A stretch of DNA of 32,000 bases from Trichlorobacter lovleyi SZ (GTDB lineage: Bacteria > Desulfobacterota > Desulfuromonadia > Geobacterales > Pseudopelobacteraceae), in assembly GCF_000020385.1 (NCBI RefSeq), contig NC_010814.1, forward strand, positions 60,001 through 92,000, given 5' to 3'. This document shows, one piece after another, positions 8,579-32,000 of the stretch. A program made the translations under genes and the position numbers. Numbering within the stretch: the first letter of the stretch is position 1; each line of letters starts with the position of its first letter. The notes under the pieces are model-generated. The model was not told the origin of the DNA. It saw only the letters and a program-made list of their open reading frames with translations, and ran no database searches.

Positions 8579-8614
8579 GGTTCCTCCTCCTTGCTGTGCC
8601 GTCTGTGGAGGGGG

Positions 8615-8649
8615 AAATAAAAAAGCCCGCCTCCATGGGAGACGGGCTT
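8615..8649 (-). terminator. Rho-independent terminator-like hairpin just upstream of the aminotransferase RBS
   Basis: The minus-strand RNA reads AAGCCCGUCUCC-CAU-GGAGGCGGGCUU followed by UUUUAUUU. The single mismatch is G-U only on the minus-strand transcript, so it is strand-specific. Confidence 0.7.
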
Positions 8650-8847
8650 GGGTAATTGGCTGTGATGAATTAAACGGACGTACCTTACTCCATTGCACCG
8701 TGCATGGTGACACCTCTGTGCGCTATGAAGGAGTGACGTCGGATCATGGTCAAGAGCTTGCCTCAAAATTCGCAGCCCTGTCAATTGTTTTCAAGATTCT
8801 TTGGCAGATCAATCACGGTTACCCCTGCAACCGTAGCAAGCCATGTG

Positions 8848-8919
8848 CGATAACGGGGCTCGGCATGACCTGCGCGGCAAGTTCTTTTTGCCGCGTCAGC
8901 GTCTATGCCGGTGTTGGAA
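8848..8919 (-). repeat. 72-bp attC/59-be-like imperfect palindrome (element D) downstream of the TIR gene
   Basis: The minus strand reads TTCCAAC-ac-CGGCAT-agacgctga-CGCGGCAA-aaagaac-TTGCCGCG-caggtc-ATGCCG-agCCCCGTTATCG. There are two paired segments with asymmetric internal bulges. The TTCCAAC box begins 13 nt after the TIR stop. Confidence 0.6.
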
Positions 8920-8931
8920 ATCTAATTCATG

Positions 8932-10086
8932 TCATAAGTTATAAGAGGCTACCGCGTGTAGATGAGGTCCGTCTTCCCTGAGATAAGACAATAACTCATA
9001 AAATGACACATCTACGCTCCATCGCCCCATGGCATAACCACTGACTTGACCTGTTGGAAAGAGGAATGTGAAGCGGTCTGCGCTGACAGTGTATGTTTTG
9101 AAATGACTAGCATCTTCACCAGCACCGTTTTTAAATGATTCGATCTGAAAATCACTCGGTGTCTCTCCAGTTCGGTGCCAGTACTCTTTCGATAGCTCAT
9201 GGATGCATATTTCACTTATCCTTTTGATAGCACCTTGAGAATCTGAAAAGAAATCGGTTAGTTCAAGCTTGCGCACTTTGTCGACGTACTCAAAATTATA
9301 TGTTACGTAATAATAATTGGGGTGGGCCGCACCTGCATAGTACAGCCCAACATCATATGTGAGACTCAGGAATCGGTCAGTGGCATGGACAATCGCGAAA
9401 TTTTCCCAACAGCCATTTACCGCAGCAGCCCCTCTGGTTTTAAAAAATTCAGGCTCCTGTTCCCATGGCTTCTGCCTTGCGTCGATCAGGTCCGCGTATG
9501 CTCTCCCTACGAACAGGGCAGACAGTTCTTTAGCGACATCGGGCTTTGATGTGGACTGAAATCTTGGATACTCGATCTCGATATTGTGACCAGGCAAACC
9601 GTCCCAGTTATCTTCTATTCTTTCCGTAAAGACATTGAAAGGACCTGCAACTACACCATGTTCCAATTCGATTGATTGCTGCTCAGATGCCAGTCTGAGT
9701 GCTGCCTTGACCTGATCCCAAGCGCCTGGAACATTAAGGTCAACGTATTGTAGCCGAGCAGCTATGTGAGTCGGTACCTCGCAAGGCTCAAGCAGCAGCG
9801 GTATTACGTAAATATCTGTAAGTTGCTTATATCTTAGGCGTTCTATCGCATCATTAGCTTCTCTCTGCACAAAGCCTCGCTTTGTCACGCTTCGCTTGCT
9901 GAGCAAAAGCACTACTACATTTGCATCGCTAAAAGCCCGCTCTATTTCCGCTTCCCAGTTCTGGCCTGGCAATAGGTGCTTAGAATCAACCCACGGGGAA
10001 ACTCCCTCTTTAGCCAGAAGTTCATAATAGTGCTCGGCACTTTCGCGGTCCTCCTTGGCATAGCTAATAAAGACTTTCAGAGCCAC
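8932..10086 (-). CDS. TIR-domain protein fused to an RsiV/PdaC-like DUF4163-DUF3298 domain
   Basis: GTG start with GGAG 5 nt upstream. N-terminal TIR pattern: KVFISYAKEDRE.A......L...GV.PWVD......G..W...I..A....NVVVLLLSKRSV.....VQRE. The C-terminal part shows IEIEYPRF.S......ELS, YYAGAAHPNYYYVTYNF....K..EL.DFF and FLFPTGQVSGYAMGRWSVDVSFYEL, matching my memory of DUF4163/DUF3298. About 45% GC. Confidence 0.75.
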   Translation of the reverse strand: MALKVFISYAKEDRESAEHYYELLAKEGVSPWVDSKHLLPGQNWEAEIERAFSDANVVVLLLSKRSVTKRGFVQREANDAIERLRYKQLTDIYVIPLLLEPCEVPTHIAARLQYVDLNVPGAWDQVKAALRLASEQQSIELEHGVVAGPFNVFTERIEDNWDGLPGHNIEIEYPRFQSTSKPDVAKELSALFVGRAYADLIDARQKPWEQEPEFFKTRGAAAVNGCWENFAIVHATDRFLSLTYDVGLYYAGAAHPNYYYVTYNFEYVDKVRKLELTDFFSDSQGAIKRISEICIHELSKEYWHRTGETPSDFQIESFKNGAGEDASHFKTYTVSADRFTFLFPTGQVSGYAMGRWSVDVSFYELLSYLREDGPHLHAVASYNL

Positions 10087-10111
10087 ATTATCTCCATTTA
10101 TTACTTTTGTT

Positions 10112-10180
10112 TTCCAACTTGCTATTCACCGGTTCACGCGCGCGCGTGAACCGGTGAACCTCCCAAACGGAATATTTATC
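10112..10180. repeat. Conserved junction repeat, copy 1, containing a perfect 34-bp GC palindrome
   Basis: TTCCAAC-ttgctat-TTCACCGGTTCACGCGCGCGCGTGAACCGGTGAA-cctCCCAAACGGAATATTTATC. The segment 10125-10158 is its own reverse complement. It lies between the PIN stop and the TIR start and aligns with 31015-31087. Confidence 0.85.
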
Positions 10181-10592
10181 CCGCTGCTGCAAAATATCCT
10201 TCTGCCGTGACCACACGGATGCTGCTCTTACGGTAATGCCGGACATTACGGGTGATCAGCCCGGAGCAGCGTGCGCTGAGTGCGCAAAAATACTGCAGCG
10301 CATCTTCAAAGTCGGTAAACCCGGCATGCAGGGCCTGCTCAACAATGGTATCATCCACCGCAACCACACTGACCAACTGTTTGAAGGTGCGCAGCACTTG
10401 TTGGGCCTGCGGGCCAGAGTGCTGCTTTCTCAGCAGATAGAACAGATTGGCAAAGGTAAGTGAAGAAACGCACAAAGTCAGGTTGCCTGCCTCTGCCTCT
10501 GAAAAAAGCCGCGCAGCAGCGTCATAAAACGGCTCACGCCGCGCAAGCAGATCAAGCACAACATCCGTATCAACGAACAGATACGGCTTCAT
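10176..10592 (-). CDS. PIN-domain toxin (VapC-like)
   Basis: 138 aa with N-terminal FVDTDVVLDLL, acidic residues spaced as in PIN domains, and ...DFEDALQ.... It overlaps the upstream antitoxin gene by 4 nt. Confidence 0.85.
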   Translation of the reverse strand: MKPYLFVDTDVVLDLLARREPFYDAAARLFSEAEAGNLTLCVSSLTFANLFYLLRKQHSGPQAQQVLRTFKQLVSVVAVDDTIVEQALHAGFTDFEDALQYFCALSARCSGLITRNVRHYRKSSIRVVTAEGYFAAAG

Positions 10593-10834
10593 CGGTATTT
10601 ATCCGCCAGATAATCGGTATAGTCCCGCTTGTAATCTTTGACTTTGGCAGCATCAAGTACGCCGGAAAGCTGGGCCACCAGTGGCGTTACCGGCCTGGTC
10701 TGCTCTTTGGGCGCAGAAACCTGCCGCAGGTAGCCTTCAATCAGCTTTGAAAGGCTCTGGTGCTGCGATTGGGCAAAGCGTTTGGCCTGTTCAATTACAT
10801 CGTGATCAAGGCTTAAGGTAAGTTTTGTGTTCAT
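10589..10834 (-). CDS. DUF6364-type antitoxin partner of the PIN toxin
   Basis: 81 aa. MNTKLTLSLDHDVIEQAKRFAQSQHQSLSKLIEGYL matches the pattern I recall for DUF6364 antitoxins. AAGGAG lies upstream of the ATG. Confidence 0.75.
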   Translation of the reverse strand: MNTKLTLSLDHDVIEQAKRFAQSQHQSLSKLIEGYLRQVSAPKEQTRPVTPLVAQLSGVLDAAKVKDYKRDYTDYLADKYR

Positions 10835-25930: not shown

Positions 25931-27439
25931 TCAGCGTCTTCCGCCAAACAGGCTGCCCAGTACGCCACGGATTATTGAACGACCGATCTGGCTGCCCATG
26001 GCGCGGGCCGCTGATTTTGTCAGGGCTTCAACCGCGCTTTCGCGTCCTCTGCTGTGGCCACTGCCGCCACCCAGCATATCTGCCAGCACACCGCCCAGGC
26101 CGCTGCTGCCGGAAGACGACGCAGCACCTGTCTGCGTCTGTGTATCAACTGCGTCGGCTGACTGTTTGGCTCGGGCCTTGAGGATTTCATAGGCTGATTC
26201 ACGATCAACGAGTGTATCGTAGGCACCGGCAACAAGCGACGTCTGGAGTAACCGGCTGCGCTGGTCAGCGCTGATCGGGCCGATCTGCCCCCGGGGCGGC
26301 ACCATGTAGGCACGCTCCACCACACCCGGGCGCCCTTTTTCATCAAGGCAGGAAACCAGCGCTTCTCCCACCCCCAGTTCAGTGATTACTGCAGCTTCAT
26401 CCAGGGCCGGATTGTCGCGCATGGTTTCAGCGGCAGCCTTGACCCCTTTCTGGTCGCGCACCGAGAAGGCGCGTAAGGCATGCTGGATCCGGTTGCCAAG
26501 CTGTGACAGGATTTTATCCGGCACATCAGCCGGATTCTGGGTAACAAAATAGACTCCCACCCCTTTTGAGCGGATCAACCGCACGACCTGCTCGATTTTT
26601 TCCACCAGTACCGGCGGGGCATCGCTAAACAGCAAGTGGGCTTCGTCAAAAAAGAAGACCAGCTTCGGTTTGTCAAGGTCGCCGACTTCGGGCAGATTTT
26701 CAAACAACTCAGACAGCAGCCAGAGCAACAGCGTGGCGTAAAGTTTTGGCGACTGCATCAGCTTTTCAGATGAAAGGATGTTGATGACCCCAAGCCCGCG
26801 GTCAGTCTGGAGCAGATCGGCACTATTAAGCATCGGTTCGCCGAAGATCTGCTCACCGCCTTGTGCCTCCAGGGTCAGCAGGCCGCGCTGGATGGCGCCG
26901 ATTGAGGCCGTTGATACATTGCCGTAGTCGGTGGTGAACTGTTTGGCGTTTTCACCGACAAAAGCGAGCATGGCCCGCAGATCCTTCAGGTCCAACAGTA
27001 ACAGGCCATTGTCGTCAGCCACCTTGAACACCAGGTTCAGGACGCCGCTCTGGGTTTCGTTGAGATCGAGCATACGCCCAAGCAGAAGTGGTCCCATGTC
27101 AGAGATGGTGGCCCGCACCGGATGACCATTTAAGCCGAACGGGTCCCACAGGGTAACCGGGTAGCCCTGGTGGGCAAACCCTTCAAGCTTCAAGGCCTTG
27201 ACCCGCTCGGTAACCTTGGCATTGCCGCCGCCGGGCTGTGATACGCCCGCAAGGTCACCCTTCACATCCGCCATGAAACAGGGCACGCCGAGGCTGGAGA
27301 AATGCTCGGCAAGCATCTGCAGGGTAACCGTTTTGCCGGTGCCGGTGGCGCCGGTGATCAGGCCGTGGCGGTTGGCCATCTGCGGCAGCAGCAGGATATC
27401 TGTGGTGCTGTTTTTGGCAATGAGAAGAGGTTCGGTCAT
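25931..27439 (-). CDS. HerA-like DUF853 (YjgR-type) P-loop NTPase
   Basis: Walker A GATGTGKT and Walker [12 protein letters not shown]. Gly/Ser-rich C-terminal tail typical of DUF853 proteins. Confidence 0.85.
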
Positions 27440-30118: not shown

Positions 30119-30991
30119 TTAACAATCAGTTACGACATGTTCTTGTATTTCCTCAATTGCATTTCTTGGGTTGTAAATTTCCGAATTAAATGGCCATAGA
30201 GGGTGCATCAGGGGAAATCTTGATATGTTGATTTGGGAAGGGTAGGAAGCACTTCTGAATGAAAGGTGGTTGTCGTACTGAGCTGACAAATAGTATCCTT
30301 CGTGCCCTTTCATCGCAGCAGCCTGGATATTCCCACCGACAAGTAAGTTTTGAGGATCCTCGATTTCTCTTCTTATTGCTCTTACACAAGCAATTTCCAA
30401 TGCAGTCTCGATCGGCATTCGTGGCTTACAAATCAATAACTTATTAACCTCACATAGAATAATACCCTTTATTTCGTTTTTTCTATCGCCAATAACTCCG
30501 AAATAGACACCGTGTTCATTCGGAACTTCCTCTAACGGGTATACTTCTCTAGGAGTTCCAATTTTTTCAAAAATCCTGGTTCGTCCTGAGTCATCTGCAA
30601 GCATAAATAAGTATTCAATTTCTTTGTCATAAGCAGTCCGCCAGAAGTTGTCTATAGTTTCGTCTATTATTTCGATCAGTTGATCAAATTTTGCTCCACC
30701 AAGCAATCCGATTATGACAGCTTCTAAATGTATTATGCTTTGAAGTCCAAGGGAGACTGCTCCTGCAACAGATGCAACAATGTCTCGGCGACCTCGTTTT
30801 CTATCCGACTTCATGACGTGCAGTTTGATTCCAAAATCATTTTGATGACATATTTCTGTATCTGATGGGATGTTGACAAAACCATTCTCGACATTCTTAT
30901 TCCTCACTACTGTCAGTCTTGAATCTGAGAGTGCCATGGCTTGATCATATGCTTCTCTATTAAAATGTCTGTATGAAATACAAAGCGTCAT
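30119..30991 (-). CDS. Hypothetical protein, possibly an HslV/proteasome-beta-like Ntn hydrolase (by-eye similarity only)
   Basis: 290 aa, about 40% GC. MTLCISYRH...AMALSDSRLT...IVASVAGAVSLGL...YLFMLADDSGRTRIF...VYFGVIGDRKNEIKG...EDPQNLLVGGNIQAAAM loosely parallels blocks of E. coli HslV and 20S beta subunits recalled from memory. The SD is weak. Confidence 0.6.
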   Translation of the reverse strand: MTLCISYRHFNREAYDQAMALSDSRLTVVRNKNVENGFVNIPSDTEICHQNDFGIKLHVMKSDRKRGRRDIVASVAGAVSLGLQSIIHLEAVIIGLLGGAKFDQLIEIIDETIDNFWRTAYDKEIEYLFMLADDSGRTRIFEKIGTPREVYPLEEVPNEHGVYFGVIGDRKNEIKGIILCEVNKLLICKPRMPIETALEIACVRAIRREIEDPQNLLVGGNIQAAAMKGHEGYYLSAQYDNHLSFRSASYPSQINISRFPLMHPLWPFNSEIYNPRNAIEEIQEHVVTDC

Positions 30992-31014
30992 AGTATTGTC
31001 GAGTTCCCTGAAGT

Positions 31015-31087
31015 GACCAACTAGTTATTGACCGGTTAACGCGCGCACGCGCGTGAACCGGTGATCTACCCAAATGGAATGTTTATC
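31015..31087. repeat. Conserved junction repeat, copy 2 (imperfect 34-bp GC palindrome)
   Basis: GACCAAC-tagttatt-GACCGGTTAACGCGCGCACGCGCGTGAACCGGTG-atctaCCCAAATGGAATGTTTATC. It aligns along its length with 10112-10180, with one 4-nt indel and a few substitutions. It lies between the Fic stop and the 290-aa gene start. Confidence 0.85.
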
Positions 31088-31104
31088 AATTGCGCCAGCC
31101 AGTG

Positions 31105-32000
31105 CTACCCAAGGCTTGCCTCAACTCCCTCGGGATACAGGCGCGGAAAATAATATCCTGCCAGCTCTGCTGGAAAACCAAGCCTGACCGGGCCTTTTTC
31201 AGAATCTGAAACCAGATAGCCTTTGCCTACAAGCGCGCTGATCACCCGGCGGGCCGAGCGTTCCGGCATGCCGATAATTTTGGGTATTTCTCCCCGTGGC
31301 AGTTCTCCCCGCAGGAAGATATCCCGCAGCAGATGACCGGCTTCTGGCTTCAGTTCACCCAGCAAAACCTGACGGTCAACCACCGCCTGTATCCGTTGCT
31401 GCATGCCATCCAGCTCCAGCAGGCCTGCCATAAAATCAATCTGGTCAATGGCGGTTTTTAGAAAGAAGCTGCAGAATGCCAACAGACCGGCTTGGGTCAG
31501 GTTTCCCCGGCCATCCAGATCACCCCGCCGGGGCTGATCAGCCCCGGCCAGGGCCGTAAGGTATGCCTCGCGATTTCTGGCAAATCCCCGGGAGACAGTC
31601 CATAAGCCATGCCCGTCCAGTCCGGCCTTTTTCAGGTAGGCATGGGTCATCAGACGGGTAACACGGCCGTTGCCATCAAGAAACGGGTGGATCCAGGCGA
31701 GGCGATGATGTGAGGCTGCCACGGCAATAACCTGTTGCTGGCTGTTGAGTATGCCGGGGTTGTAGACCTCTTCAAATCTTTGCATAAATGCGGACAGGCA
31801 GGCCGATTTGGGCGGCAGATGCCGTCCTACCTTAACCTCAGAGGTCCTGAGTAGGCCGGGAATCACTCGTTCTACGTTTCCGTCGGCATGCTGGACAACG
31901 CGGAACTCTTCCGGCATCCGTTCATAAAACTCGCTATGTATCCAGCAGAGAAAGTCCTTCGCAGTAATGATGGTTTCCGGGGCGGCCTCAAGCCGGGCTT
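31105..32000 (-). CDS. Fic-family protein (N-terminus beyond the window end)
   Basis: HPFLDGNGRVTR Fic motif and a C-terminal winged-helix-like tail. My translation upstream of the track's Met stays open to position 32000 (...APETIITAKDFLCWIHSEFYERMPEEFR), so the gene is 5'-truncated by the window. Confidence 0.88.
   Translation of the reverse strand, partial: ARLEAAPETIITAKDFLCWIHSEFYERMPEEFRVVQHADGNVERVIPGLLRTSEVKVGRHLPPKSACLSAFMQRFEEVYNPGILNSQQQVIAVAASHHRLAWIHPFLDGNGRVTRLMTHAYLKKAGLDGHGLWTVSRGFARNREAYLTALAGADQPRRGDLDGRGNLTQAGLLAFCSFFLKTAIDQIDFMAGLLELDGMQQRIQAVVDRQVLLGELKPEAGHLLRDIFLRGELPRGEIPKIIGMPERSARRVISALVGKGYLVSDSEKGPVRLGFPAELAGYYFPRLYPEGVEASLG

Follow-up and report, generated by a model that had tools for sequence, protein, structure and literature searches.

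The gene at positions 8932 to 10086 of a 32,000-nucleotide stretch of the Trichlorobacter lovleyi SZ genome (contig NC_010814.1, positions 60,001 to 92,000; hereafter the window) encodes a cytoplasmic protein of 384 aa in which a TIR domain is fused to a two-domain module, DUF4163-DUF3298. We read this protein as a stand-alone single-chain sensor-effector that would degrade NAD+ (an NADase) and act by abortive infection, and we hold this explanation with about even confidence. Single-chain proteins that unite an NADase with a sensor are already established (TIR-SAVED, TIR-APAZ and DSR2). What is unusual here is the sensor module, which is normally extracytoplasmic. The parts of the gene that carry the argument are the following.

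8932..10086, minus strand: coding sequence of the TIR-DUF4163-DUF3298 protein, 384 aa, GTG start, TGA stop.
9679..10086, minus strand: TIR domain with its C-terminal helix, aa 1-136 (Pfam TIR_2, Foldseek, and profile matches to TIR-APAZ in the PDB).
9859..9861, minus strand: GAA codon of E76, the putative catalytic glutamate of GFVQRE (invariance and alignment to CrtTIR-APAZ).
9313..9654, minus strand: DUF4163/PdaC-like half, aa 145-258 (Pfam match under the cutoff, profile matches to 3cyg, RsiV and Mpt64, Foldseek).
9316..9333, minus strand: motif G-A-A-H-P-N, aa 252-257, a superfamily-wide loop at the position of the lysozyme-contact loop of RsiV.
8962..9303, minus strand: DUF3298 half, aa 262-375 (Pfam above the cutoff, Foldseek, family profile).
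9025..9060, minus strand: F-P-T-G-Q-V-S-G-Y-A-M-G, aa 343-354, the other conserved loop that would contribute to a ligand face.

The sequence and its relatives show the architecture, an invariant catalytic Glu, a cytoplasmic protein, a gene with no conserved partner, its mobility and an exchange of effector domains on one module. From these we infer NADase activity, activation driven by oligomerization, a defense phenotype and a ligand that appears with infection, in a scheme of the following kind. The N-terminal TIR domain would be an NAD+ glycohydrolase that stays silent as long as the protein is a monomer or is autoinhibited. The C-terminal DUF4163-DUF3298 module would be an intracellular version of the ligand-binding fold of RsiV, Mpt64 and PdaC, and the infection-associated ligand would dock where the GAAHPN and (P)YQV-x2-Y-x2-G loops make up a common face. 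Ligand binding would then lead to self-association of the TIR domains, by which composite active sites would be completed around E76. NAD+ would be depleted, and the infected cell would no longer support phage replication.

The gene itself is well defined. Its GTG start is preceded by a GGAG Shine-Dalgarno sequence 5 nt upstream, and the same 384-aa product is called in two NCBI assemblies that are syntenic with the window. Pfam TIR_2 (PF13676) covers aa 5-119 with E=1.8e-24 and 87 bits (cutoff 28), and Pfam DUF3298 (PF11738) covers aa 278-362 with E=4.3e-9 and 37.6 bits (cutoff 24.1). The Pfam model PdaC/DUF4163 (PF13739) matches aa 168-258 of the window protein alone at 19.8 bits, under its cutoff of 29.1, and is cleared by two relatives, P0165 and P0236. 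A family profile made from 67 diverse members (A3) was searched against solved structures, and its matches spanned both halves of the module: 3cyg (1e-24), 3s5t (5e-22), RsiV 5jen (7e-16), Mpt64 2hhi (9e-16) and 4e72 (4e-7). From profile position 46-57 onward A3 aligns with RsiV 62-264, 3cyg 10-213 and Mpt64 21-203. The AlphaFold2 model of the window protein has a mean local confidence (pLDDT) of 82.7 and a predicted template-modeling score (pTM) of 0.61. Foldseek matched its C-terminal module to 3cyg (E=1.5e-9, target-normalized TM-score 0.73) and to the RsiV-lysozyme structure 5jen (4.7e-8, target-normalized TM-score 0.63), and also to 3s5t and 4e72. The family profile and Foldseek establish that the two-domain module is present despite the sub-cutoff PdaC score. 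RsiV, Mpt64, the N-terminal region of PdaC, 3cyg, 3s5t and 4e72 are thus homologous to the C-terminal 240 aa of the window protein in both sub-domains and have the same fold.

These relatives differ from the window protein in their location. RsiV, Mpt64, PdaC and other DUF3298 proteins are extracytoplasmic, with a transmembrane anchor, a signal peptide or a lipoprotein signal, whereas the window protein is cytoplasmic and fused to TIR. Its N-terminus is the first TIR strand, and it has no signal peptide or transmembrane segment, because the highest 19-residue Kyte-Doolittle hydropathy is only 1.18. The features of an RsiV anti-sigma factor are likewise absent from it: the N-terminus is a TIR and not a sigma-V-binding domain, and there is neither a site-1 cleavage site nor a hydrophobic segment.

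Bacterial TIR proteins with an N-terminal TIR and an uncharacterized C-terminus have been described as host-directed effectors, and this counts for a different explanation, namely that the TIR protein is exported to act as a toxin or virulence effector on other bacteria or on a host, along the lines proposed for BtpA, TcpC and PumA. We consider it extremely unlikely. The protein lacks any export signal of the kinds just named, no adjacent immunity gene, secretion-system gene or PAAR/Rhs-type carrier was found at any locus examined, and the hosts are mostly environmental bacteria.

The TIR domain looks catalytically competent from its sequence. Among 54 homologues with 60-93% identity the segment K69-R70-G71-F72-V73-Q74-R75-E76-A77-N78 is nearly invariant, and F72-V73-Q74-R75-E76 is invariant in all 54. 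In a profile alignment E76 falls on E77 of the TIR-APAZ protein of CrtSPARTA, a short prokaryotic Argonaute (pAgo) system, and in SPARTA the mutation E77A abolishes NADase activity (PMC9097488). With Foldseek the TIR half matched TRR-2 (0.81), MyD88 (0.75) and SARM1 (0.66-0.69; all target-normalized TM-scores), as well as SPARTA TIR-APAZ. The nearest defense TIRs in PADLOC are Aga_TIR of short pAgo systems and SAVED_TIR, both at 3e-12, while the best ThsB model is weaker (4.9e-8). Distant members of the family behave in the same way, with the TIR placed closest to those of short pAgo and TIR-SAVED proteins and ThsB again weaker.

SPARTA TIR-APAZ and the TIR-SAVED protein of CBASS (the cyclic-oligonucleotide antiphage signaling systems) therefore have the closest TIRs by sequence and structure, with the catalytic glutamate aligned (E76/E77). 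They share with the window protein the order of parts, with the TIR at the N-terminus and a sensing or adaptor domain after it, and their NAD+ depletion upon oligomerization is the output that may be expected of the window protein too. In contrast to them, the window protein has no APAZ or SAVED domain, and its C-terminal fold, DUF4163-DUF3298, is a different one. The Aga_TIR matches end at about profile position 118-147, that is, with the TIR only. A partner gene for a pAgo or a cyclase is missing too, as none is conserved beside the TIR-DUF3298 gene in the 29 loci described below; no pAgo neighbor was found in these loci or in the window. The SIR2 proteins of the DSR2 type offer the same proposed logic in a single chain, an N-terminal NAD+-degrading domain and a C-terminal sensor of a phage component, with abortive infection as the result. 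Compared with DSR2, the NADase fold of the window protein is TIR and not SIR2, the protein is much smaller (384 aa), and the sensor fold is unrelated.

A preliminary description of this DNA, made from its letters, had proposed a TIR domain in the first 135 aa or so, the likely catalytic Glu in GFVQRE, a cytoplasmic location and a DUF4163-DUF3298 C-terminus. The first three proposals agree with what we found. The fourth stands for DUF3298 by Pfam itself; its DUF4163 part fails the Pfam cutoff and is recovered by the family profile and Foldseek.

It is useful to follow the gene across different taxa. We took 30 full-length loci from reference genomes of Beta-, Gamma- and Deltaproteobacteria, Bacteroidota, Acidobacteriota and Aggregatibacter. 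After open reading frame (ORF) calling and clustering, no flanking gene cluster was common across 29 loci, and every flanking cluster was different. We rejected a two-gene or Thoeris-like system on account of this lack of a shared neighbor, in agreement with the earlier claim that the gene stands alone without a ThsA-like partner. In 25 of 27 loci the gene has a lower G+C content than the DNA on either side, with a mean difference of 8.4 points; for the window copy the comparison is 0.467 against 0.568.

The gene is found on several kinds of mobile DNA. On the Agrobacterium plasmid pAt it lies between a HEPN protein and a GIY-YIG nuclease, where an integrase and an ATPase plus S8 peptidase pair are also present. 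One copy is on an integrative and conjugative element, and a TrwC element that carries the gene also has an XhoI/Eco57I restriction-modification system and a methyltransferase-Mrr fusion. IetAS is near the gene at one locus (L011), and a MazE antitoxin gene adjoins the copy P0090. The relative P0088 occurs in many metagenomes (L058-L065) on a small plasmid-like element with ParA, Rep and resolvase, and here the gene adjoins an integrase fragment and the trio SLATT, ThsB_TIR and TPR-S, a predicted TIR-signal/pore-effector system. On three contigs of the P0070 sub-lineage (L069-L071) a 193-aa ORF without Pfam matches lies 26 nt upstream of the TIR gene; it is absent at the other loci and could be a lineage-specific accessory partner.

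Decayed copies were also detected. In Geomobilimonas luticola (L018, 7941-8519) the gene has 94% nucleotide identity and a stop after "...HNIEIE" (about residue 173), which leaves the TIR part only, with unrelated sequence beyond. In Acidovorax sp. DW039 the plasmid pACDW039_1 (L053, 6001-7610) has a TIR-only copy, 83% identical over aa 1-114, which abuts an IS3-family transposase and represents a separate event of decay.

Four IMG/VR contigs are genuine temperate phages of three types, with the gene at accessory positions. In one (L048) it lies between the small terminase and primase genes. In L049 and L051 (7034-10075) it lies between the antiterminator Q gene and the holin and GH24 lysozyme genes, on the same strand and within the late operon, and in L050 (1930-3734) it adjoins an Rz-like spanin gene at the end of the tail-fiber region. 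The Q-holin/lysis junction and the end of the tail-fiber region are generic moron hotspots, or prophage accessory positions.

The Thoeris protein ThsB, like the one proposed here, is a TIR protein that serves as an infection sensor, and its profile similarity to the window protein is weak. We can ask: Does the TIR, once the C-terminal part has sensed infection, make a signaling nucleotide (a cyclic ADP-ribose isomer or a product of the His-ADP-ribose type) for an effector encoded elsewhere? The weak PADLOC, NCBIfam and Pfam similarity to ThsB and other Thoeris TIRs, and the P0088 element with its neighboring ThsB_TIR, SLATT and TPR-S, would favor such a signal generator. Nevertheless, we find it unlikely. 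The Pfam ThsB_TIR score is 12.6 bits against a cutoff of 21.2, and the TIRs closest to it belong to effectors that deplete NAD+. The 29 loci have no conserved partner of the ThsA, SLOG, Macro or SLATT kind and no adjacent ThsA in any case, and single genes that move between phyla are unlikely to need an unlinked partner. The window protein differs from ThsB also by its additional module of 250 aa.

The distribution of the family and the exchange of its effector domain bear most directly on the sensor-effector explanation. A word-indexed search gave 373 relatives. The best 120 of these are all full length with the same architecture, and where they have names these are only "TIR domain-containing protein" or "hypothetical protein". 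The family as a whole is widespread in Pseudomonas, Burkholderiales, Rhodocyclales, Geobacterales, Aggregatibacter, Bacteroidota and Acidobacteriota, and homologues across Beta-, Gamma- and Deltaproteobacteria are 60-66% identical.

When only the C-terminal 249 aa were searched, exhaustively, against 1.84 billion representatives, 984 matches reached E<=1e-3. The best 150 of the 984 include 52 TIR fusions, which make at least 52 clusters at 50% identity from several phyla, and 62 proteins of the classical extracytoplasmic form, with a hydrophobic N-terminus (signal peptide, lipoprotein or transmembrane). The remainder of these 150 have short or other N-termini, and one transmembrane Ser/Thr kinase among them carries the module outside the cell. 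In P0250 (653 aa) the TIR-DUF3298 protein has an extra C-terminal domain, a right-handed beta-helix.

In at least four clusters at 50% identity (P0193, P0220, P0243 and P0248) an HNH endonuclease lies N-terminal to the same module, again with no signal peptide; P0159 is another such protein, probably a fragment. The HNH-DUF4163-DUF3298 proteins are about 320-335 aa long, are uncharacterized and have no PADLOC model. They resemble the window protein in having the same C-terminal module, a cytoplasmic location and a similar size, and differ in that the N-terminal "killing" domain is a nuclease, not an NADase. That one module carries either of two cell-killing domains, TIR or HNH, is what would be expected if it serves conflict systems as a sensor. 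We do not claim a robust cytoplasmic clade of the module: a neighbor-joining tree separates the TIR, HNH and short forms from the secreted ones, but pairwise identities (0.23-0.27 throughout) do not. The same tree suggests that the TIR-fused and HNH-fused modules are nearest to one another, and here too the pairwise identities make no distinction.

Taken with this exchange, the patchy distribution, the low G+C content, the carriage on plasmids, integrative elements and prophages and the decayed copies are what one would expect of an accessory gene for conflict rather than of a housekeeping gene. In PADLOC-DB v2.0 and NCBIfam r20 no model covers the full TIR-DUF4163-DUF3298 architecture, and matches are to the TIR part only; we also found no paper in the openly accessible literature that links TIR with DUF3298, DUF4163 or RsiV, other names included. 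For these two collections this answers in the negative the earlier question whether the architecture is already catalogued as a named defense system. The proposal that the protein is a sensor-effector in defense gains circumstantial support from the TIR/HNH swap, the TIR of the SPARTA and TIR-SAVED kind, the low G+C content and the mobile contexts. The trigger that accompanied the proposal, a phage muramidase recognized by virtue of the homology to RsiV, is not supported by the comparison of ligand-contacting loops.

In RsiV the domain pair serves to bind and inhibit C-type lysozyme, which it contacts via three loops, of which the key ones are E163-T171, with S169 critical, and Y255/P259/Y261; Mpt64, with the same domain pair, does not bind lysozyme (PMC5014341). 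In the profile alignment the RsiV loop E163-T171 (ETTQASSYT) falls exactly onto a superfamily motif, Y-x-G-[AG]-A-H-P. This motif is lost in RsiV, where the loop contacts lysozyme, and is kept in 3cyg, 3s5t, 4e72, Mpt64 and the window protein (Y249-A-G-A-A-H-P-N257). RsiV Y255 is the Tyr of the superfamily "PYQV", and the equivalent residue is Gly346 in the window protein and in relatives at >=70% identity. The window protein thus lacks the E163-T171 loop and the Y255 of the RsiV-type lysozyme contacts. The window protein and the same close relatives show a remodeled ligand face, in which "YGAGAAHPNSHFE" became "YYAGAAHPNYYYV" and "APYQVS" became "PTGQVS". This remodeling of the putative face is consistent with a shift in specificity.

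In our reading of these alignments the GAAHPN and PYQV loops would be the general ligand face of the fold, and RsiV would be a specialized offshoot. On this reading, lysozyme binding by the window protein is not something that homology would lead us to expect.

A sensor of endolysin or lysis machinery, with a TIR that is activated when a phage muramidase, some other lysis protein or muropeptides bind to the cytoplasmic RsiV-like module, would find its precedent in RsiV and a weak hint in the prophage copies that lie beside the holin and GH24 lysozyme genes or the Rz-like spanin gene. We regard such a sensor as quite unlikely. The contact loop of RsiV stands in place of the GAAHPN that the window protein keeps, and Mpt64, which has the canonical motif, is no lysozyme binder. 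Besides, the RsiV precedent concerns an animal C-type lysozyme and not phage GH24 enzymes, and no lysin neighbor was found at any chromosomal locus. The lysis-adjacent junctions are generic accessory positions, and therefore the adjacency in two of the three phage types is weak evidence. A broader version of the idea takes the cytoplasmic DUF4163-DUF3298 as a new class of intracellular pattern-recognition domain, an inward-facing counterpart of RsiV, which would directly recognize phage lysis machinery (GH24 endolysin, holin or spanin) or released muropeptides and would be plugged interchangeably onto TIR for NAD+ depletion or HNH for DNA cleavage. To this version, too, we assign a low probability.

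Several observations weigh against the sensor-effector explanation. For the whole family it comes from computation. The pTM of 0.61 means that the mutual orientation of the TIR and the C-terminal module is only moderately defined in the model. Within three genes on either side at 28 genomic loci the neighbors are mostly housekeeping genes. We do not claim strong enrichment in defense islands: 74 of the 110 PADLOC families in a bulk scan came from one reverse transcriptase, that of a group II intron, and therefore the association with defense islands is only modest. No homologue was found in the 50,697 deposited phage genomes of INPHARED, and BFVD gave no structural relative. The late-operon position in L049 and L051 means that the gene might be expressed as this phage itself goes through lytic growth, and that sits badly with a switch for abortive infection that is always present. 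The sensor half is also fairly well conserved for a domain that would sense proteins, and secreted homologues share its key motif. Such conservation could indicate a small ligand that has stayed the same, or else a structural or enzymatic function. In the opposite direction, the effector half exceeds the sensor half in conservation (pairwise identity 0.77 against 0.61), and this pattern, like the remodeled ligand face, counts for the sensor-effector explanation.

The conservation of the sensor half leads to a non-immune explanation: a cytoplasmic regulator or enzyme whose DUF3298 part has a conserved activity (e.g., esterase-like) or binds an endogenous metabolite, with the TIR used in NAD-linked stress signaling. 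H255 is conserved in 96-100% of cytoplasmic and secreted members, and F280, G321, F343, the Tyr at position 346 and G354 are likewise equally conserved in both. The equal conservation of GAAH, F280, G321 and F343-x2-Y-x-x-x-x-x-x-x-G354 in the secreted homologues suggests a shared site. There is also a weak NCBIfam match (E=2e-5) to Rv3036c, which is described as an exported esterase (PMC10865251), and many loci have only housekeeping neighbors. However, the esterase match, at 24 bits, is far under its threshold of 200, and the patchy distribution, low G+C content, mobile carriage, decayed copies and TIR/HNH exchange all oppose a housekeeping role, so that we think this explanation rather improbable.

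If the sensor-effector explanation is true, then this is a small TIR immune protein of 384 aa, encoded by one horizontally mobile gene, whose sensor fold had not been recognized before. The RsiV/Mpt64/PdaC module, so far known only outside the cytoplasm, would have been recruited as an intracellular sensor for at least two effectors, TIR and HNH. Knowing the trigger would offer a first insight into what the conserved GAAH/YQV site does in the large DUF3298 superfamily, and the proteins are small enough for direct structural and genetic dissection.

The immediate surroundings of the gene in the window contain four further features.

10176-10592, minus strand: PIN_3 toxin (Pfam), not a conserved partner.
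10589-10834, minus strand: DUF6364 antitoxin (Pfam), not a conserved partner.
10090..10175, minus strand: palindromic spacer element, from the PIN stop to the TIR start, with a perfect 34-nt palindrome at 10125-10158.
8623..8649, minus strand: intrinsic-terminator-like hairpin with a 12-bp stem and a T-run, about 285 nt past the TIR stop.

Among the loci compared, only this genome has the PIN_3/DUF6364 pair beside the TIR gene, on its upstream side. Together with the TIR gene the pair forms a low-GC islet (0.487 against 0.568 in the rest of the window). The spacer element looks like a REP-like repeated extragenic element: a second copy of about 75 nt, 77% identical, is found at 31017-31085, and both copies lie at junctions within low-GC accessory islets. 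The region shared with the G. luticola TIR gene sets in at 10119 of the window, directly 3' of the palindromic element. We rejected an integron cassette with an attC site, as the spacer has no R''/R' cores (RYYYAAC/GTTRRRY) and housekeeping genes lie between the dispersed islets.

The predicted RNA fold of the spacer (10087-10178, minus strand) has an energy of -35.9 kcal/mol and z=-6.45. In its outer stem UUCCGUUUG, located 5' of the palindrome, pairs with AAAUGGAG, the Shine-Dalgarno region of the TIR gene. According to this model the fold could occlude translation of the TIR gene in read-through transcripts from the toxin-antitoxin operon.

Downstream, a non-coding gap of 353 nt (8579-8931), in which the hairpin forms a strong terminator, separates the TIR stop from the aminotransferase start (8578). 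A known RNA in this gap was rejected, the Rfam match being below threshold (27.7 bits against a gathering score of 100). Six-frame translation of the gap gave no convincing hidden ORF or gene remnant, and the gap has no counterpart in related loci.

Two more low-GC islets are present in the window, both on the minus strand. The islet at 1396-2902 (G+C 0.35-0.40) has HicB (1396-1722), HicA (1719-1973) and an AbiGi-family gene (2105-2902), and no ORF for an AbiGii partner was seen in it. In the islet at 30119-31917 a gene for a Fic/DOC-domain protein (31105-31917) comes first and an ORF of 290 aa (30119-30991), for which Pfam and PADLOC gave no match, comes after it, and the second spacer copy lies between the Fic/DOC stop and the start of this ORF. 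This islet could be another toxin or defense cassette. A HerA-like helicase is encoded at 25931-27439, also on the minus strand (HerA_C, E=6e-221).

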